Assembly (NCBI GenBank): GCA_039028615.1
Contig: JBCCHT010000011.1
Coordinates: forward strand, 199,916 to 263,915
DNA length: 64,000 bases
Direction: 5' to 3'
Origin: Myxococcota bacterium
GTDB taxonomy: Bacteria; Myxococcota_A; Polyangia; Nannocystales; Nannocystaceae
Every line of letters starts with the position of its first letter. Position 1 is the stretch's first letter. Both the position numbers and the translations under genes were made by a program. This document shows positions 31,635 to 40,968 of the stretch, piece after piece. The notes under the pieces were generated by a model that searched no databases, was not told the origin of the DNA, and worked only from the letters and a program-made list of their open reading frames with translations.

Positions 31635-32411
31635 TTACGCCCCACCCCCTCCAACCTCCACCACCCCCCCACTATCAAATCCCCCCACCGGCTCATCCGG
31701 GTACCCCCGCTGATTACTCACCACCCGAGTCCCCCCCACCCGATAGTCCACACAATGATGCGTATGCCCATGCACCCATAACTCCGCCCCCGACCCCGCA
31801 ACCATCTCGTCGAGGCGACTCGCATACGCTGGACTCAGCCGATCCTTCGCAAACCGAGGATCGAGCGATCGAGCACTCGGAGCATGATGCGTCACCACCA
31901 CCGTGCTCTCCGCCTCCGTCTCCTCCTCCAGCCGCTCTTTCAACCAGGCCTTCGCGAGCGCATGCTCCCGCCGCGTATCCACCGGTCGAAGCCGTCGATA
32001 CCGCGGACTCGTGCGGATCTTCTGGTAGTCGTTCATCGCCGCCGCCGCCACTTCCCCCGACGCCCACGCCCGGTCCTCACCGAACAAGGCAAAGTCGGTC
32101 CACAGCGTGGTCGCCAAGATCCGAACCGGCCCCACCCGAACTTCCGCTCGCTCGAGGACCTGCACGTTCGTCCCCGCTGCCGCCGCCTGCATCTTCTCCA
32201 GGGTCCGCGGCATGGCCCCTCCGTAGTACTCGTGGTTGCCCGCCACATACACGACCGGAACGTCGGGAAACATCTTCTGCGCCCACTCGACCCCGCGGAC
32301 CCCTTTGCCGATGTCTCCCGCGAGCACGACCAAGTCGGCCTCCACCCGCGGCAGGTGAAAGGGCGCGAACTCGGTGTGCAAGTCCGAAAAGACTCGAAGG
32401 CGAGTGGCCAT
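31635..32411 (-). CDS. Calcineurin-like metallophosphoesterase
   Basis: SDLH, LAGDI, VAGNHEYY, TLWTDF, THHAP, WVHGHTH, NQRGYP. Confidence 0.95.
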   Translation of the reverse strand: MATRLRVFSDLHTEFAPFHLPRVEADLVVLAGDIGKGVRGVEWAQKMFPDVPVVYVAGNHEYYGGAMPRTLEKMQAAAAGTNVQVLERAEVRVGPVRILATTLWTDFALFGEDRAWASGEVAAAAMNDYQKIRTSPRYRRLRPVDTRREHALAKAWLKERLEEETEAESTVVVTHHAPSARSLDPRFAKDRLSPAYASRLDEMVAGSGAELWVHGHTHHCVDYRVGGTRVVSNQRGYPDEPVGGFDSGGVVEVGGGGA

Positions 32412-32415
32412 CGGC

Positions 32416-34863
32416 TCAGCTTCCAAGCGCGACGAAGCCGTCGACACCTTCGGTGACGGTGATCGCGGAGTCGACCTTCACCCCTTCGACCCGCTGCACG
32501 GTGCCGCTCGTGGGCCAGGTGATCTCCAGCTCCTCGATCTCGCTGCCCCCGCCGAGTCCGATCTCCTGCTGCAGGCTATTGGCCCCGAAGCTCGCGCCGC
32601 TGCTCACCCAGGTGTAGACGTCCCGCGACTGGCCGCCGTCGAGCACTCGCACCCGCACCCGCGCCCCGATGGCCGCCCGGTTGGTGGTGTCGCCGACCAG
32701 GCGCACCGTGAGCCAGTGGTTGCCGTAGCCCGGGTTCTCGAACAGGGCGTTGTAGAAGGCGTCGGCCTTGTACCAGCCACCCATCTGAATGAAGACGTCC
32801 TGGTCTCCATCGCCATCGAGATCGCCGAAGGCCACGGCGTGGCCCTTCTGCAGGTGGCCCATGTTCACCGCGGAGGTCACGTTCTCGAAGCGCTTGCCGC
32901 CGTCGTTGCGATACATGACGTTGGGCACGAGGATCTCGAAGGGCGGCGACCCGGTGCCCAGGTAGATGTCGGGGAAGCCGTCGCTGTCGATGTCGCCGTA
33001 GTTCGCTCCCATGGGGAATCGAACGTCGAACAGCTCCATGTCCTTGGTCGCGTCGGTGAAGCCGCCGTTGCCATCGTTGATGTAGATCTGCAGGCGCTCC
33101 TGGTCCTCCATGTTGTCCGGGCCGGGAAAACCGAGGAAGTCTGCGGCCCAGACCTCGAGCTTGGCGGGCGGGTAGCCCCCCACGAAGAGGTCGAGGTTGC
33201 CGTCCTGGTTGGCGTCGAAGAACCAGCTGGTGAAGCTATGCACCCCCTGCCCGCGCTCGAGGTCCACCCCGAGATCGGGCGCGACGTCGACGAAGCTGCC
33301 GTTTCCTTCGTTGCGATACAGGTGGTTGGGCTGGTTCAGGTTCGAGACGTACAGGTCGAGGTCACCGTCGTTGTCGTAGTCGCCGAAGGTCGCCCCCTTG
33401 GTGTTGGGCGGACCGGGCAAGCCCCAGACGTTCTCGACGCCGGCCTCGTGGGCGACGTCGACGAAGGTGCCGTCGCCTTCATTGTGGAACAGCTGCGAGG
33501 GGTACCACTCGTTGCCGACGTAGAGGTCGACGAACCCGTCGTTGTCGTAGTCGCCCCAGGCGGCGGCTTGGGCCGGGTAGGCGCGGAGAGCCAGGCCGGC
33601 CTCGAAGCTCACGTCGGTGAAGTTGCCCTTGCCATCGTTTTGCAGCAACGAGTTGCGCTGCCGCCCGGGCGCATGCAGCTGCCACGCGCCACGCACGACA
33701 TAGATGTCGAGATCACCGTCGTTGTCGTAGTCGGCGTGCATGAGGTTGAAGCCGCCGAGCTGCTTGGAGATGCCCGACTGATCGGCCCAGTCGGCAAACG
33801 TGCCGTCCCCCTCGTTGCGATAAAAGTGCATGGTCGAGCACGAGTCGTAGCTCGACGAGACGATGTCGAGGCGGCCGTCGCCATCGAAGTCGTCCATGAT
33901 CGCGCCGCCGATCACGTTGAAGTCGTCCATGCCCTTCTCGCCCGCGAGCTCGGTGAAGCCCGCCATGTCGCGATCGGGCTTCAGGCGCTCGGGCGGCAGC
34001 ACGAAGCGCTCGTCGACGCCCTCGGGGTAGATCCCCACCGCCATGGCGGCCACGTTGAGCAGCCACCGCGCCCGCACGTCGTCGGGGTCGGCCTCGAGGA
34101 CCTCCATCAGCCACTTGATGGCGGTGCGCCCGGCCTCGGGATTGGCCCACACGCCCTCCTTCTGGATGGGGAAGAGGCAGCTGTCGGGGTTGTGCCCGTG
34201 CAGACAGTGGGTGACCTCGCCGCCCCGCAGCGCGGCCACGGCCAGCTCGGTGCGCAGGCCATTGACCTGCTCGAGCGGGTACTCGGCCTTCTGCGCTGCC
34301 CGCAGGGCGAGCAACAGCTGCTCCTGGGCGGGCGCGATGTCGTTGTGGCGCAGCAAGTGCGTCGACAGGGTGCGCCGGGTCTCGATGATCGCATCGACGT
34401 CGCCCTGCCCCTCGAGCTCGGCGACCTTGGCCGTCAGCTCGTCGATGCGCCCGCGACCGAGCATGGGGTCGGTGCTCTTGCCGATGGTCTCGCAGAACGA
34501 CTCGAGGCTGGCGACGTCCCGCTTGATGAGGTCGGCGCGCAGGGCCGTGGCGTAGCCGCCGATCCCGGCGAGCACCAAGGTCAGGCCCCACACCGCGGGC
34601 TCGATGCCTCGACCCCAGCGCCGTCGCGGCGCCCGAACGATGAGCACCATGGCGCCCAGCAGCAACGCCGCCTGCAGCCCTCGGACGGCGAGTAGCCGAC
34701 GGCTCCCGAAGTATTCGTAGGGGGTGAGCAGCTCGAACTGGGCGAGCGCTCGATGCCCCACGAGCATCGCGGTCACGACCCAAAAAGCCCCCAGCAACCG
34801 CCGTCGGGCGGCGCGGAGGGCCTCGAGGTTCGACTCGTTCGGTTCAGAGGGAGTTCTGCTCAT
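32416..34863 (-). CDS. CRTAC1-family FG-GAP/VCBS repeat protein with C-terminal ASPIC/UnbV domain; N-terminal TM helices
   Basis: Repeated DYDNDGDLDLYV motifs; GHLQKGHAVAFGDLDGDGDQD; NRAAIGARV...SFGANSL..EIGLG...ITWPTSG. Confidence 0.92.
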   Translation of the reverse strand: MSRTPSEPNESNLEALRAARRRLLGAFWVVTAMLVGHRALAQFELLTPYEYFGSRRLLAVRGLQAALLLGAMVLIVRAPRRRWGRGIEPAVWGLTLVLAGIGGYATALRADLIKRDVASLESFCETIGKSTDPMLGRGRIDELTAKVAELEGQGDVDAIIETRRTLSTHLLRHNDIAPAQEQLLLALRAAQKAEYPLEQVNGLRTELAVAALRGGEVTHCLHGHNPDSCLFPIQKEGVWANPEAGRTAIKWLMEVLEADPDDVRARWLLNVAAMAVGIYPEGVDERFVLPPERLKPDRDMAGFTELAGEKGMDDFNVIGGAIMDDFDGDGRLDIVSSSYDSCSTMHFYRNEGDGTFADWADQSGISKQLGGFNLMHADYDNDGDLDIYVVRGAWQLHAPGRQRNSLLQNDGKGNFTDVSFEAGLALRAYPAQAAAWGDYDNDGFVDLYVGNEWYPSQLFHNEGDGTFVDVAHEAGVENVWGLPGPPNTKGATFGDYDNDGDLDLYVSNLNQPNHLYRNEGNGSFVDVAPDLGVDLERGQGVHSFTSWFFDANQDGNLDLFVGGYPPAKLEVWAADFLGFPGPDNMEDQERLQIYINDGNGGFTDATKDMELFDVRFPMGANYGDIDSDGFPDIYLGTGSPPFEILVPNVMYRNDGGKRFENVTSAVNMGHLQKGHAVAFGDLDGDGDQDVFIQMGGWYKADAFYNALFENPGYGNHWLTVRLVGDTTNRAAIGARVRVRVLDGGQSRDVYTWVSSGASFGANSLQQEIGLGGGSEIEELEITWPTSGTVQRVEGVKVDSAITVTEGVDGFVALGS

Positions 34864-37800
34864 GCGACCCGTGGGGCAGGAGGGCCCGCAGGTCGGAGAC
34901 CGAGGGAGGTCCTGCCATCGCCAGTAGAACACGCCCTTGCGCGTCGGTCACGATGGTCGAGGGCAAGACGTCCTTGCGCACGAGTGCGTCGAGCACGGCC
35001 TTGGCCGCCGAGCGCTCGGTGACGCTCAGGTTCACCAGCAGGTCGTAGCCGGGATGGTGCTCGTCGATGTAGCTGCGGAGCATGTCCGGCGTGTCCTGGT
35101 CGTCCATGGGCAGGCCGAAGAGCGCGAGCTCGTCTTTGCCCAGGGCCTTCCGAAGCACCGACAGCTGCGGCATGTGCTTCTTACAAGACTCACACCACGT
35201 GGCCATGGTGGAGTAGAGCACCAGCTTCGCCTCGCCCGCGCGCTCGTGGGCGGCATCGACCACGAAGGAGCGCCCTTCTTCGGGCAGGGCCACCGGGTTG
35301 GCGGTGGCCAGCGTTGCCTCACGGTGCAGGTACGGGTGCAGCACCACGCCCGAGCCGTCGACGGTGTCCGCGGGGTTCTCGAACAGCTCGACCCGCTGCC
35401 CCACGGCCACATCGCGCACGGTGCTCGTCTTGCCCGAAGGCCAGGTGATCCGCATGGCCGACACGGTGGTCGCTTCGCCCACGCCGATCACCAGCGTGGA
35501 GGAGTTTTGGGAGGCGAACCCTTCGCCCAGTCGCTTCTCGCGGAGCAAGGTGGTGCCGCCGGGCAGGTCGAGCTGGATCCGAGTGCCGATGGCGTCGCGG
35601 TTGCTCCACTCGGTGCTGGCCTCGGTGCCCTTCAGGCCGCCGCGCAGGTCGACCGCGATCATGTTGCCGATGGTGGCGGGGTCGAAGACCTCGGATGCGC
35701 CGTTGCGGTAGAGCACGAAGCCGGGCTCGTTGGCGTTGACCATCGCGATGTCGTTGAGGCCGTCGTGGTCGAAGTCGATGCTCGACCACGCGCGGGAGTC
35801 GGAGGGAGAGTCGAGCCCCACCACACCCGCGATGTCGTCGAACTGCTTGCCGCCGAGGCTGAGGAAGAAGTGGTTTCGCTCGCCTCCGCTGAACGAAGCC
35901 GAGGCCGAGGACTTCCAGCCCTCCTCGCGCCAGCGCGACTTCCAGGGGTCCTTGTTCTGAATGCCGGAGTGAAGGTTGTCCGAGGAGCGCACGACCGTGC
36001 GCCAGAACTGGCTTCACAAATCTACGTCGACGGCGATCTCCTTGGGCGCGGTGTAGAAGCCCGAGAGCGCGTAGATGTCGAGGAACCCGTCGTTGTCGAA
36101 GTCGGTGAACTGCGAGCCCCAGCCCCAGCCCCCCTTCTCGACCATCATCTTGGGCGCCTCGAGGCCGGACACGTGGTCGAAGGCGCAGTCGCTGCCCATG
36201 TTGCGGAACAACGAGTTGCCGCTGGCCATCTTGACGAAGTTGCCATCGATGAGGTTGCCCAGGCCGCCCGCGATGCGGCGCCCGGCCTTGCTGTACATGT
36301 TGGTCACGTACAGGTCTTGGGCGCCGTCGTTGTCGTAGTCGCCCCAGCTCACGCCCATGCCGAAGCCGACGTCGGCGGTCTGGGTGAGCTCGGTGATGTC
36401 GGTGAACTTGCCGTCGCCGTCGTTGCGGAAGAAGTTGTTCGAGGCGAAGTCGTGCGCCAGGTACAGGTCCTGATCGCCGTCGTTGTCGTAGTCGGCCCAG
36501 CCCCCGTGGTAGGTGTGCCGCCAGACGCCGAGCTGCTCCTGCAGCGGCGATTCCTCGAAGGTCCCGCCCACGTTGGACAGAAACAGGTTGGGCGGACCCA
36601 CCTGGTCGATGAACTCGTGGGCGGTGAGCGAGCGCTTGTGCAGCTCTTTGGCGTCCTCGGGCGACAGATAGGGCGCCAGCAGGGTCTCGGCCGGCTCGAT
36701 GGGGATCTGCCCCGCCCGCTGCGAACGCATCATCTTGACCGCGTAGGTCGACAGGTAGACGTCGAGGCGGCCGTCGCCGTCGTAGTCGGCGGACGAGATG
36801 GAGGTGGTCAGGTTGGGCAGCTCGACCGCGACCTTGTCGCTGGCGTCGGTGAAGCGCCCGTCCACGTTCTCCATGTACATGGAGCGCTTGGCCGTGCGAC
36901 CGAGGAACAGGTCGGAGTCACCGTCGTTGTCGAAGTCGCCGAACAGGCCGCTCGAGACGAACGGAATCCCGGTCAGCCCATACTGCTCGGTGACGTCGGT
37001 GAAGGTCCCGTTGCCGCGATTGCGCAGCAGCTTCATGTCGCTGAAGTGCGGCATGACCAGGACGTCGTCGAAGCCGTCGTGGTCGATGTCGGTCACCGCC
37101 AAGCCGGGGTGGTGGTCCCACGCGATGAAGTGGAAGCCCCAGTAGGGCTCCTTCCACTCCGGGTCGGTGGCCATGCCCACGATGATGTCGTGCAGCTCGG
37201 AGTGACGCAGGGCCTGCCGGGTCTCGGGGTCCGGCACCGCCTGCGCCAGCACGTCCTGGAACATCTTGTTCTTGGCCTGGACGCCCTTGAGCTCCTTTTG
37301 TTTCCACTTGTAGATGCGCCAGGGACGACGGCCCTCTTCGTCCGGCTCGGCGCTGGTGTCCTCGCGCCAGAACAGCTCCTGCTTGCCCTTCATGGTCAGC
37401 CAGGTGCCGTCTTTGGCTCGCGCCAGCGCAGAGAAACCGGACAAGGCCTTCCACTCGGTGAGGTCCTCGTTGGTGAACTCGCCGCGAATGAAATAGATCT
37501 TCGCGTGCTCGAAGTAGTCGACCTTCTCGAAGAGCGGATCCCACGGAGACTCCGTGATCGCCCCCGTCGAGAAGTCGTCCTCGAGCGGCCATTCGAAGTG
37601 AACGGGCGCGACCTGGGACGTGGGCTCGGGCAGCTCGCCGCCCGAGGCGAGGCCGAGCACCTTCACCTTCGGCTCGAACAGGTCGGCGCTGCGATAGTCG
37701 CCGAGGGATAGGTTCGCCACTGCCTTGGACAGCTGCTTGAGCCGCGGCGTGTAGCGGAGGATGAGCTCTTCGGACTCGATGACCCCCTCCAGGGTCTCGG

Positions 37801-37942
37801 CGGCCGCCTGCTCTTCGGCAGGGACGGGCGGATGGCGATGCAGGTACAGCGCAGTACCGCCCGCCGCGATCGCACTGGCGGCGCCTATGAGGAGAGGGAA
37901 TCTATTTCGAGACTTGGAGCGTTCAGCATCAAGGATTGGCAT
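34844..37942 (-). CDS. Probable selenoprotein: FG-GAP/CRTAC1 repeats - Sec643 - ASPIC/UnbV - TlpA-like thioredoxin (CESC); ~1032 aa with UGA readthrough at 36016-36014
   Basis: ORFs 36014-37942 and 34844-35992 are in the same frame, joined by GAT TTG TGA AGC CAG TTC TGG CGC ACG GTC GTG (DL-U-SQFWRTVV). The FG-GAP repeat array continues after the TGA; a SECIS-like hairpin starts 11 nt downstream. Confidence 0.8.
35987..36002 (-). other. Bacterial SECIS-like stem-loop GCGCAC-GGUC-GUGCGC
   Basis: Perfect 6-bp stem with a GGUC loop; begins 11 nt after the in-frame UGA. Confidence 0.75.
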
Positions 37943-38088
37943 TGGGGACGGTGGGCTGGGGGCGCGATGAGACCAGGGTAGGGTCGACCGACCACGACAG
38001 CCTACATGCTTCTGGCGCTAGGGCATCAACCCGACCCGCAACGGAACCATGCCCGAATGACCGGTTGTTCGGGCCACCAACCGTTCAC

Positions 38089-39195
38089 TCAAAGATCAAT
38101 TGCCAAGAACGCAACGAGTTCCTCAGCGGGCCGGAAACCTTGGATCATGCGCAGTGGTGTACGGGCCCCAGGGTCGATCAACACGAACGCGGGCGTGGCC
38201 TGGAGATCGAGCCCTTCGAACAATGTCCACGTTGCATCGTCGGTAATGTCGCGCCGGGCAACGGTGAATTTTTGCATCGCGGCGTTCACTTTGGGACGTA
38301 AGAGTTCCGCCTCCTGTCGCTCGCAGGCCCCACAACCTTTCGCCGTCAGGTGTAATAGCAGCGGCACGTTCCGCGCGTTCGCGTCGCGAAGCGCGGAGTC
38401 GATCGGCGCCCAATTAATTTCGACGCGCGACGGTTCTTGCGGATCGCGCCCCGTCAACCGAGCCAGCTCGCGTTCCACGCCTGCCTCGTTCGCCCATTTC
38501 AACTTCGCGGCGACATTGCACGACCCGTCGATCACGAAGGCCGCATTCGGCCAACCCTTGTAGGCATTCGCGGTCGCGTCATCGGGCGTGTCGAGCAACA
38601 CGGGAATCGTGCCCGGCACCTCGTCGCGCAGCCGACGAGCCAGCGCGCGCCGCTGTTGCAAGGTGGTCGGTGTCGCCACCTCGTCGAACTCGTCGATGCG
38701 CCGGATCGACACCGCCTCGTGCGACGCGACCTCGCCGTCTCCGTTGACGTCACACGAACCAAAGAACGAAGGCGAGCCCCCGTACTCCGCCTGCGTGACG
38801 ATCCCGTTGCCGTCCTTGTCGGACGCCAGCAAGCGATCGAGCTCCGCGTTGAGCTCGTCGCCGCCTTGTCCTTTTGCATGCGCTTCCTTCGAGAACACGA
38901 AGGCGAAGCGGGCGTCGTCACCCCATCGATCGGCTTGGGCCTCGAACCGAGGCACCTTCATCCGAAAGGGGGGTCAACTATAGGAGCCGAAGATCAGCAC
39001 CGTCGGCGCCGCGCCGCACAGGTCCTTCAGCTGGACCTGCGAGCCCCCCAACGCGTCCAGCGAGAAGGCGGGCGCCGCGTCGCCGACCTTGGGATCGAGC
39101 TGGTCGAAGGGCACGGGCGGCGGGCGCTGGTCGCTGCGACAGCCGAGCGAGACGAGCGAGAGCAAGGGCCACGACACCAACGACGACCAGCGCAT
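38089..39195 (-). CDS. Probable selenoprotein: iodothyronine-deiodinase-like lipoprotein (Sec74) with EF-hand insertion and C-terminal thioredoxin (CGAC); 368 aa with UGA readthrough at 38976-38974
   Basis: TTC GGC TCC TAT AGT TGA CCC CCC TTT CGG = FGSYS-U-PPFR, matching the deiodinase FGSxxUPPF site; KVGDAAPAFSL before it, FVFSKEAH after it; DKDGNGIVTQAE and DVNGDGEVASHE EF-hands; lipobox VSLGC. Confidence 0.9.
38937..38956 (-). other. Bacterial SECIS-like stem-loop GG-U-GCCUC-GGUUC-GAGGC-CC
   Basis: GC-rich stem with a 5' bulged U; loop begins GGU about 25 nt after the in-frame UGA. Confidence 0.7.
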
Positions 39196-39258
39196 CGCCG
39201 TCCAGGGTAGCAGCGATTGCAGGGTGCCCGGCGGCGATCGATGGGCGATGATGGGCGG

Positions 39259-40968
39259 GTGAGCAGCCGACGTCAGTTCTTGACCGCGCTTGCGGCCTCC
39301 GCCGCGGCCTGCCGCGTGACGCCGACCGGACAGCCGGGCACGGCCGCGACCGCCTCGACCGACCTCGACAGCCTCGCCGCCGCCGAGAAGGTCCTCGGCA
39401 TCGAGCACACGCCCGCCGAACGGGAACAGATCGCCGCCACCCTCGACGAGCAGCTCGGTCTCGTCGCCTCTCGCCGCGGACATCCGCTCCCCAACGAACT
39501 CGCGCCTGCCACCGTCTTCGACCCGCGGCTACCTGGCACGGCCGTGCCGACCAGCACCACGCGGGCCTTTCCCGAGGTCGGCGAAGCCCTGCCCGCCGAC
39601 GACGAGTCGATCGCCTTTGCGAGCGTCGCCTCGCTGTCGAAGTGGATCGCGACCAAGCAGATCACCAGCCGACGGCTCACCGAGCTCTACTTGGAGCGAC
39701 TCGAGCGGATCGGGCCGAGCTTGGAGTGCGTGATCACGCTGACCCGGGAGCTGGCGCTGCAGCAGGCCGACCGCGCCGACAAAGAGATCGCCGCCGGCAA
39801 GCTCCGCGGGCCGCTGCACGGCATCCCCTGGGGCGCCAAAGACCTGTTCGATACCAAGGGCATCAAGACCACCTGGGGCGCCAAGCCCTACGAAGACCGC
39901 GTCGGACCGAGCGATGCCACCGTCGTGCAGCGCCTCGAAGCGGCCGGGGCCGTGTTGGTCGCCAAGCTCTCGCTCGGGGCCTTGGCCTATGGTGACCTGT
40001 GGTTCGGCGGGCGGACCCGCAACCCGTGGAATCCGGTCGAGGGTTCGAGTGGCTCGAGCGCAGGCTCGGCTTCGGCCGTCGCAGCCGGGCTCGTGGGGTT
40101 TGCGTTGGGCACCGAGACTCTGGGGTCGATTGTCTCGCCGTCCATGCGATGCGGCGTCACGGGCTTGCGACCCACCTTTGGTCGTGTGCCGCGGACCGGG
40201 GCGATGGCGTTGTGCTGGTCGATGGACAAGGTCGGACCCATCACCCGTCGAGTCGAGGATGCCGCGATGGTCCTGGCTGCCATCGATGGAGCCGACCCCG
40301 GCGATGCCTCCAGTCGCGATGTTCCCTTGGCGCTCGATCTGAAGCGCCCACTCGAGGGTTTGAAGGTCGGCATCATCCCGGGATGGTTTGCCGACCCGGA
40401 GCTGAGCGAGCCCGAGAAGGCGCTGCCCGCCGTCGTCAAAGAGCTGGGCATGGAGCTGGTCGAGCTACCCTCGCTTCCCGACCTGCCCTACGCCGCCATG
40501 CTCACCGTGCTGTACACCGAGGCCGCCGCCGCCTTCGAGACGCTGATGCTCGACGGTAGTGACGACCAGCTCGTCTGGCAGGACCTCAACGCCTGGCCCA
40601 ACAGCTTTCGGCGCACGCGGCTGCTCGGCGCGATCGAGTTCGTGCAAGGGCAACGGATCCGTCGCGAAGTCATGGGGGCGCTGGCCGAGCGCTTTGCCCA
40701 AGTCGACGTCATGGTCGGGCCCAGCTACGCGGGCGGCATGCTGACGATCACCAACATGACCGGGCACCCCTGTCTCACGATTCCCGCCGGGTTCGTCGAG
40801 CGACCGCCGATCGACTCGTTGAGCAATGCACCGATGGACGGGGACGCGCGATCGATGCCGCAGGGGATCACGGTGTGGGGGCGGCTGTACGACGAAGGCA
40901 CGCTGTGCCGGGTGGGCTTGGCGTTGCAAGAGCACTACGGCGTGGCACCCAAACGCCCACCCATGTGA
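39259..40968 (+). CDS. Amidase-signature family enzyme, Tat-type signal/lipoprotein
   Basis: SSRRQFL..AAAC; GPLHGIPWGAKD, GSSGSSAGS, GTETLGSIVSPS. Confidence 0.93.
   Translation: MSSRRQFLTALAASAAACRVTPTGQPGTAATASTDLDSLAAAEKVLGIEHTPAEREQIAATLDEQLGLVASRRGHPLPNELAPATVFDPRLPGTAVPTSTTRAFPEVGEALPADDESIAFASVASLSKWIATKQITSRRLTELYLERLERIGPSLECVITLTRELALQQADRADKEIAAGKLRGPLHGIPWGAKDLFDTKGIKTTWGAKPYEDRVGPSDATVVQRLEAAGAVLVAKLSLGALAYGDLWFGGRTRNPWNPVEGSSGSSAGSASAVAAGLVGFALGTETLGSIVSPSMRCGVTGLRPTFGRVPRTGAMALCWSMDKVGPITRRVEDAAMVLAAIDGADPGDASSRDVPLALDLKRPLEGLKVGIIPGWFADPELSEPEKALPAVVKELGMELVELPSLPDLPYAAMLTVLYTEAAAAFETLMLDGSDDQLVWQDLNAWPNSFRRTRLLGAIEFVQGQRIRREVMGALAERFAQVDVMVGPSYAGGMLTITNMTGHPCLTIPAGFVERPPIDSLSNAPMDGDARSMPQGITVWGRLYDEGTLCRVGLALQEHYGVAPKRPPM

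Follow-up and report, generated by a model that had tools for sequence, protein, structure and literature searches.

The locus and the question it raises

Does a cluster of four genes on the Myxococcota bacterium contig JBCCHT010000011.1 encode one conserved selenium redox system, or two separate selenoproteins that adjoin in this lineage? We analyzed a 64,000-nucleotide (nt) stretch of this contig, which we call the window. All coordinates are positions within it, and the genes are labeled g1 to g4 in transcription order on the minus strand. The four genes share that orientation, and g1 and g2 contain one in-frame TGA codon each. The initial annotation described them as an extracytoplasmic module of two selenocysteine (Sec) proteins, a paralogue, and a phosphoesterase. 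The genes, TGA codons, hairpins, CGAC and CESC domains, and calcium-type motifs were all located as it had described. Our preferred explanation, which we regard as probable, is that g1 and g2 are two self-contained exported selenoproteins adjoining in this lineage only and working by the mechanism proposed below, that g3 is an occasional neighbor, and that g4 is a passenger. The features are as follows, with U standing for Sec and SECIS for selenocysteine insertion sequence.

38089..39195, minus strand: g1, 368 amino acids (aa), U74; predicted lipoprotein with a deiodinase-like peroxiredoxin (Prx)/thioredoxin fold, an EF-hand pair, and a C-terminal CGAC domain
34844..37942, minus strand: g2, 1032 aa, U643; predicted membrane-anchored protein with a CRTAC1-like FG-GAP propeller, ASPIC/UnbV, and a TlpA-like CESC domain
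32416..34863, minus strand: g3, 815 aa; CRTAC1/UnbV paralogue without Sec and without thioredoxin
31635..32411, minus strand: g4, 258 aa; calcineurin-like metallophosphoesterase
38974..38976, minus strand: TGA decoded as Sec74 of g1; lines up with the catalytic Sec/Cys of Dio3, TGA or Cys in orthologues
38937..38956, minus strand: predicted SECIS hairpin of g1; 13-nt core kept in TGA orthologues
36014..36016, minus strand: TGA read as Sec643 of g2; TGA/Cys column in the family, starts helix 643-652 within the propeller span
35986..36003, minus strand: predicted SECIS hairpin of g2; loop GGTC at 21 nt

Decoding of the TGA codons in g1 and g2

Profile searches of the genome (12.27 Mb, 96.7% complete) found selA (403 bits), selB (281 bits), and selD (385 bits), each above its curated cut-off, and ARAGORN found a tRNA-Sec gene (selC). 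All four genes that define a Sec-decoding bacterium are thus present, as the initial annotation required. The arrangement resembles E. coli fdhF-type SelB/SECIS recoding in its in-frame UGA, the hairpin directly 3' of it, the G in a small apical loop, and the presence of selA, selB, selC, and selD; we found no difference from that system.

The TGA of g1 lies in the motif FGSYS-U-PPF, and its hairpin has a GTT loop, which starts 30 nt from the first base of the TGA and is closed by a G-C pair. Full-length g1 orthologues (44 to 46% identity) were found in 6 of 72 genomes of the family, with weak partial matches in 4 more, and the nearest named orthologues belong to Nannocystaceae. Five of the six have TGA at the Sec column and one has TGT. 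A metagenome scan seeded with g1 alone gave 146 pattern matches, none of which was confirmed. Scanning with an alignment (A2) gave 27 loci, and the three full-length ones comprised one TGA form, one Cys form, and one copy identical to L103. Altogether, the column is TGA in six and Cys in two of eight distinct orthologues with DNA. The 13-nt core of the hairpin is identical, synonymous positions included, in all six TGA orthologues. The Cys orthologue L102 has a changed core, and no selA match was found in its genome (78% complete). Compared with synonymous recoding, the g1 hairpin is more stable than expected (z = -2.05, P = 0.044). The six TGA copies ranged from -2.05 to -4.29 (orthologues, -3.2 to -4.3), versus -0.05 for the Cys copy. 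Therefore, g1 has a conserved TGA that aligns with Cys and is followed by a clear SECIS-type hairpin.

The TGA of g2 lies in VDL-U-SQFWR, and its hairpin has the loop GGTC. A 12-row profile of the g2 Sec region (A3) matched 49 places in 34 of 301 genomes of the phylum; 34 places had exactly one TGA, and 15 had none. We combined the A3 matches with loci from other genome searches into 60 aligned places, in which the residue 643 column was TGA in 43, Cys in 15, Ser in 1, and Ala in 1. Neither TAA nor TAG occurred at this column in the 49 matches or the 60 aligned places. The mean hairpin energy was -11.8 kcal/mol at the 43 TGA places versus -5.7 at the 17 others, part of this gap being encoded by the amino acids. 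Relative to synonymous recodings, the Sec group had a mean z of -1.06 (8 of 43 with P ≤ 0.05) and the others a mean of +0.11 (0 of 17). One result counts against this assignment: for the g2 copy itself, the hairpin did not differ significantly from synonymous recodings (z = -1.24, P = 0.08). So g2 has the TGA/Cys column, and its SECIS is discernible at the family level. Of 49 g2-family genomes tested, 47 have selA, including every genome with a TGA form. The two without selA hold Cys forms only; most Cys-only genomes nevertheless have selA.

Could the two TGAs instead be true stops, pseudogene lesions, or sequence errors? Databases do call the halves of the read-through genes as separate genes. 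The initial annotation had predicted that standard annotation would give four fragments, and such splitting was seen in the g1 family, in which 24 of 26 protein database clusters start just past the Sec column and 2 are full length with Cys. One contig from the probable source run agrees with the window over 12,001 bases with 0 differences, which is not independent evidence. However, the codon is always TGA at the same column across several phyla, homologues have Cys there, and the hairpin is linked to the TGA. Stopping at the g2 TGA would also truncate the propeller ahead of its last blade. Because the TGA is conserved in both families, both codons are beyond chance, and we consider stops, lesions, or errors very improbable. 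The proposed Sec recoding of both genes was therefore upheld, and, judged from conservation, g1 and g2 are almost certainly real selenoproteins.

A crude screen of the genome reduced 200 in-frame TGA sites to 17 with a SECIS-like hairpin; it missed g1. Besides g2, 8 of the 17 resemble known selenoprotein types, presumably AhpD-like, redoxin-like, and MsrA-like by their motifs, with the loop at 21 to 28 nt. The loop position of g2 matches several of these candidates. The eight sites in this genome (C2:229521, C5:96454, C21:184047, C33:133832, C6:131401, C14:16632, C18:139362, and C29:36589) bear CxxU, UxxC, or MsrA-like motifs plus SECIS-like hairpins.

g2 is a CRTAC1-like propeller with Sec on a helical insert

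Three Pfam domains scored above cut-off in g2: FG-GAP_3, UnbV_ASPIC, and AhpC-TSA. A structure model of the read-through protein (104 sequences; predicted local distance difference test [pLDDT] score, 91; predicted template modeling score, 0.91) was a single compact protein across the TGA. It comprises an N-terminal alpha/beta domain (about residues 42 to 225) that matches no named family, a propeller (226 to 750) that includes Sec643, an UnbV region, and a TlpA-like tail. In the model, helix 643-652 starts with U643 and lies within the propeller; the sequence for the final blade follows the TGA. Murine CRTAC1 (9etn) aligned with g2 over 226 to 857 (Z = 34.7; root mean square deviation [rmsd], 2.3; 458 residues aligned). 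By Pfam, both g2 and g3 have an FG-GAP propeller followed by ASPIC/UnbV, and for g2 the fold matches as well. They thus resemble the CRTAC1/ASPIC-UnbV family (9etn; PF07593, PF13517), from which g2 differs by its added N-terminal domain, Sec-bearing helical insert, and TlpA-like domain. There are seven DxDxDG-type motifs in g2 and seven in g3. An Atlas search with the N-terminal domain of g2 returned unnamed clusters only; its topology may resemble that of NTF2/SnoaL. The tail scored 28.8 bits against the TlpA equivalog NF047696 (cut-off, 230), so it is TlpA-like in fold and CxxC only.

Each selenoprotein does have the fused CxxC domain that had been reported (CGAC at 288-291 of g1 and CESC at 917-920 of g2). 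The proposed export of g1 to g3 also agrees with their predicted N termini: a lipoprotein-type Cys19 in g1, one weak hydrophobic stretch in g2 (Kyte-Doolittle, 1.55), and three such stretches in g3.

Non-repeat residues conserved across the g2 family include M529, S551, R556, W606, W608, W647, S683, and R717. The conserved Arg, Trp, Ser, and Met residues may form one ligand pocket near Sec643. The propeller has no conserved Cys partner; C586 occurs in the g2 copy only.

The UnbV domain was named from enediyne gene clusters, which our literature search did not confirm. The initial annotation could not tell whether the arrangement had been catalogued. For the deiodinase-like family, to which g1 belongs, it has (PMC1088965 and PMC13188914). 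For a CRTAC1/UnbV selenoprotein, the only entries we found are candidates in Table S9 of Kim et al. 2016 (PMC4807772), which lists four ASPIC/UnbV FG-GAP selenoprotein candidates in planctomycetes P1 and P2. Like g2, these are split genes with the same domains, and three have a predicted SECIS. Table S9 gives no sequences or positions, so the likeness is one of description. The text passages of PMC4807772 that we consulted do not discuss this candidate family. CRTAC, ASPIC, UnbV, FG-GAP, and the Pfam numbers were absent from the text of a 119-family review (PMC13188914), from PMC9312934, from the deep-Sep text and supplements, and from the BSepDB main text. Full-text literature searches listed no paper on a CRTAC1/UnbV selenoprotein family. 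g2 belongs to a sparsely documented family, for which PMC4807772 Table S9 gives candidates only. Most known selenoproteins bear Sec in a thioredoxin-like fold (PMC13188914).

Separately, PMC12758564 describes a CRTAC1-family FG-GAP gene between or beside hydrazine synthase subunit homologues in three clades.

Sec643 and the fused thioredoxin domain of g2

We built a tree from 137 sequences, kept from 60 DNA places and 150 library proteins after filtering for propeller cover. Ninety-five have the thioredoxin tail, and 42 lack it. Among tailed members, 32 of the 34 that have Sec or Cys at the column retain CxxC, versus 10 of the 61 that have another residue. On the tree, at least 12 changes of state occur at the column, and five independent pairs on supported branches gave a mean of 2.8 concordant and 0.1 opposite changes. 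In this comparison, CxxC tends to be retained alongside Sec/Cys and is mostly lost in their absence, which suggests an internal relay in g2. Three points weigh against that relay. After kinship correction, the link was not significant (sign test, median P = 0.25). The groups were sampled differently, the TGA members coming from DNA and the others mostly from a protein library. Finally, 11 Sec and 21 Cys members lack the tail, so the fusion is not required.

Alternatively, Sec643 may be noncatalytic. It would then bind a metal or make a bond of structural or regulatory importance, the propeller would bind ligands in the manner of an adhesin, and the thioredoxin domain would act on other proteins. 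We know of no enzyme activity for CRTAC1-type propellers. In many full-length homologues, the column is occupied by Glu, Ser, Asp, or Ala although the surrounding motif is kept, and the propeller lacks a conserved Cys partner. On the other hand, Sec643 starts a helix, as redox Cys and Sec residues often do, and CxxC tends to decay where Sec/Cys is lost. A noncatalytic Sec643 is possible but doubtful, and we continue with a redox role for this residue.

The family contains several distinct groups. Genome G132 has nine g2-family genes (L163, L167, L171, L175, L178, L183, L184, L188, and L194), comprising seven Sec forms, one Cys form, and one Ser form with a decayed CxxC. A large clade of full-length homologues (P0039-P0178) combines Glu, Ser, Asp, or Ala in place of Sec with a thioredoxin domain that has no CxxC; these are possibly pseudo-enzymes or binding proteins. 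A Cys-only clade (L061, L108, L161-L173, L177, L180, and L188) has the motif D-Y-C-x-x-F/Y-W-x-H-D and neither the hairpin nor the thioredoxin tail. In L197, L198, and L199, which form a divergent Sec subgroup (U-L/M-E/D-M), a conserved gene whose start looks like that of an acyl-CoA ligase lies opposite.

g1 is a deiodinase-like protein with a new architecture

Pfam T4_deiodinase (PF00837) matched g1 with an E value of 9e-11 and 42 bits (cut-off, 27), so g1 falls within that domain family. It scored 104 bits against NF038285 (deiodinase family protein), below the cut-off of 250. In a structure model (pLDDT, 88), two EF-hand-like loops were modeled as helix-strand-helix. This pair is an insert of about 68 residues (about aa 109-176) in place of a short loop, loop-D of the Dio insertion. 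The C-terminal domain is closest to that of DsbD (DsbD-gamma; E value, 4e-9), and C288 and C291 of its CGAC motif are invariant in seven of seven aligned orthologues. Cys19 follows a hydrophobic stretch and is equally invariant (7/7), with a noncanonical lipobox in the g1 copy.

Prokaryotic deiodinase-like selenoproteins were described in 2005 (Zhang et al.), with a presumed general redox role (PMC1088965), and the family appears in the current selenoprotein tables of PMC9312934 and PMC13188914. g1 shares the fold, Sec position, and motif of this family (PF00837, NF038285), and it shares FGSY-x-U-PPFR, EAH, and Y-x-G-W-P motifs with a deiodinase-like representative in the deep-Sep supplement. 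It differs from the family by the EF-hand pair in the catalytic domain, the fused C-terminal CGAC thioredoxin, the predicted lipoprotein anchor, and UxxF in place of the UxxC given in the reviews; the deep-Sep representative has Pro-Asp-Arg where g1 has Pro-Asn. By sequence, g1 belongs to the bacterial deiodinase-like family, a known family in which its architecture is new.

The initial annotation went further and suggested that the system possibly acts on halogenated or electrophilic compounds. Might g1, like the animal deiodinases, truly catalyze reductive dehalogenation, with iodinated or brominated aromatics as substrates? Its best structural matches are DIO2 (9h48; Z = 20.7; rmsd, 4.0; 170 residues aligned) and DIO3 (4tr3; Z = 20.4). 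Like them, it has a Prx-like thioredoxin fold, and compared with Dio3 it keeps the catalytic Sec, GS-x-S/T-U-PPF, and the E-x-H of the proton relay. The run from which the contig probably derives is a marine metagenome. However, identity to the animal enzymes is 21 to 24%, and g1 lacks loop-D, which is replaced by the EF-hand insert, and the proximal Cys. Pro176 aligns with the second relay His, and Pro-Asn aligns with the Glu-Arg thyronine-binding pair; the roles of these relay and substrate residues are taken from PMC11592359. TlpA/ResA and 1-Cys peroxiredoxin folds score within 2 to 3 Z units of the best match, and PMC1088965 made the case for another role of the bacterial family, in redox reactions generally. 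By its substrate residues, g1 is not an iodothyronine deiodinase. The dehalogenation claim was thus unsupported, and we consider a true dehalogenase quite unlikely.

A conserved four-gene system is not supported

We fetched 133 loci, 59 with a g2-type gene and 44 with a g3 orthologue. Six had both, from Planctomycetota, Hydrogenedentota, and the same family as our genome; the other 53 g2 loci lacked g3, and 38 g3 loci lacked g2. Neither g1 nor g4 was found in any of the 59 g2-type loci. Near the eight g1 orthologues, we found no g2, g3, g4, or flanking amidase gene; their neighbors differ from one another, and some contigs are short. None of 43 g2-bearing genomes has a full-length g1, and nine of them have a generic TGA-bearing deiodinase-like gene at another site, with no FG-GAP motif closer than 1.5 kb to it. 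Among the 72 family genomes, g2 matches occur in three, g3 orthologues in three, and a g4 orthologue in one, and none of these shares g1. On the 21-kb contig with the nearest g2 (54% identity; G008, 72% complete), neither g1 nor g3 is present. Clustering of 568 open reading frames (ORFs) neighboring the 59 g2-type genes gave no recurring partner except CRTAC1 paralogues, with crude ORF calls, some of them antisense. So the co-occurrence of g1 and g2 that the initial annotation wished to see tested was not found in distant relatives, where the two are kept apart. Its conserved four-gene module was likewise unsupported: the genes lie in different genomes and neighborhoods, with order retained for g1 to g3 in a close relative only, and g4 has different codon use and no export signal. 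We read the locus as a local arrangement of genes of like function.

Some observations pull the other way. Of the 59 g2 loci, 46 reach 12 kb, and many loci are short. A relative in run X2 (about 85 to 92% DNA identity) keeps the order amidase-g1-g2-g3 over five contigs (window 32474-40962). We estimate that two of about ten selenoprotein genes among about 10,000 would adjoin by chance in about 1% of genomes. Local co-function of g1 and g2 is compatible with both the X2 synteny and this chance figure.

These observations bear on another explanation, in which g1 to g3 are a co-regulated, lineage-specific surface selenium-redox island acting together, i.e., the originally proposed module minus g4. 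In marine biofilms, for example, it might protect against electrophiles such as hypohalous acids and halamines. Such an island would fit the predicted export and shared orientation of g1 to g3, the 20-nt overlap of g2 and g3, the order kept in X2, the six other loci in which g2 and g3 adjoin, and the low chance of adjacency. No full orthologue of g1, g2, or g3 was found in five genomes of the same genus, as expected of a block acquired together. However, g1 lies beside g2 in no distant genome, and most g2 and g3 loci lack the other gene. The 1% figure is post hoc, from a scan of many windows. g1 is also separated from g2 by 146 nt, and its GC content at third codon positions (GC3) is 0.79 (0.68 at its 3' end) versus 0.91 for both g2 and g3; the gap and lower GC3 suggest a separate origin. 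We therefore consider a jointly acting island rather unlikely and retain two self-contained selenoproteins as the preferred explanation. Promoter and terminator scans did no better than chance (1 versus 0.5 expected; 6 versus 4.3).

GC3 within g1 falls from 0.93 at the 5' end to 0.68 in the 3' third (window 38089-38499), which may mark recent recombination or relaxed codon selection.

Proposed mechanism and significance

On the basis of conservation, SelB would read each UGA via the hairpin just downstream. g1 would act like a deiodinase or peroxiredoxin, with the Sec74 selenolate attacking an oxidant or electrophile and the fused CGAC domain re-reducing the oxidized selenium. Ca2+ bound by the EF-hand pair, which replaces the substrate loop, might gate the site. 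g2 would present Sec643 on the helical insert of its propeller, near the conserved Arg, Trp, Ser, and Met residues; the selenium would be re-reduced by the TlpA-like CESC domain of the same protein. Electrons would most likely come from an inner-membrane DsbD/CcdA route; a DsbD transmembrane domain is present in the genome. The most likely role is cell-surface reduction of oxidized thiols or oxidant removal rather than thyronine-type dehalogenation.

A bolder version, which we put forward very tentatively, is that g2 represents a widespread, uncatalogued class of exported propeller selenoenzymes. Its Sec, beside an Arg/Trp pocket, would turn over a specific small molecule and be recycled by the fused TlpA, and here it would be paired with a Ca2+-gated deiodinase-like g1 as a surface island against halogen oxidants. 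If true, this would be the first biochemical function for bacterial CRTAC1/UnbV proteins.

Sec643 is a testable catalytic-residue candidate for a family of CRTAC1/UnbV propellers. Sec- or Cys-form propellers occur in about 1 in 9 of the sampled phylum genomes, with up to nine copies per genome, which is a real catalogue gap. g1 is a natural deiodinase-fold protein with its own reductant domain and a predicted calcium-binding loop, useful for studying the function of bacterial deiodinase-like proteins and the way in which this fold regains its reduced state. The locus as such is of smaller importance: the g1-g2 pairing is local, and the propeller family is already among listed candidates (PMC4807772).

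Neighboring genes

g4, which begins 4 nt past the g3 stop codon, matches Pfam Metallophos (E value, 7e-12); no export signal was found in it, and its GC3 is 0.76. The family genome that has its orthologue has no match to g1, g2, or g3. In run X2, no long piece covers g4, where the depth is 0.4 to 1.4 versus 8 to 12 over the neighboring genes, and the contig with g3 extends for 1,855 unaligned bases; the missing cover alone proves nothing. g4 is a probable passenger.

An amidase-signature gene (window 39217-40968, plus strand) is divergent from g1. Its N-terminal leader contains RRQFL, which we take to be twin-arginine-like. It also lies beside g1 in the X2 relative, and not beside the other g1 orthologues.

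g3, an occasional paralogous neighbor of g2, has a Cys pair (C220 and C229). Its family is widespread (44 loci) and has the motif H-C-x3-H-N-x2-S-C-x-F-P, in which both Cys residues are kept in 44 of 45 aligned orthologue matches. Locus L069 holds up to four tandem copies.

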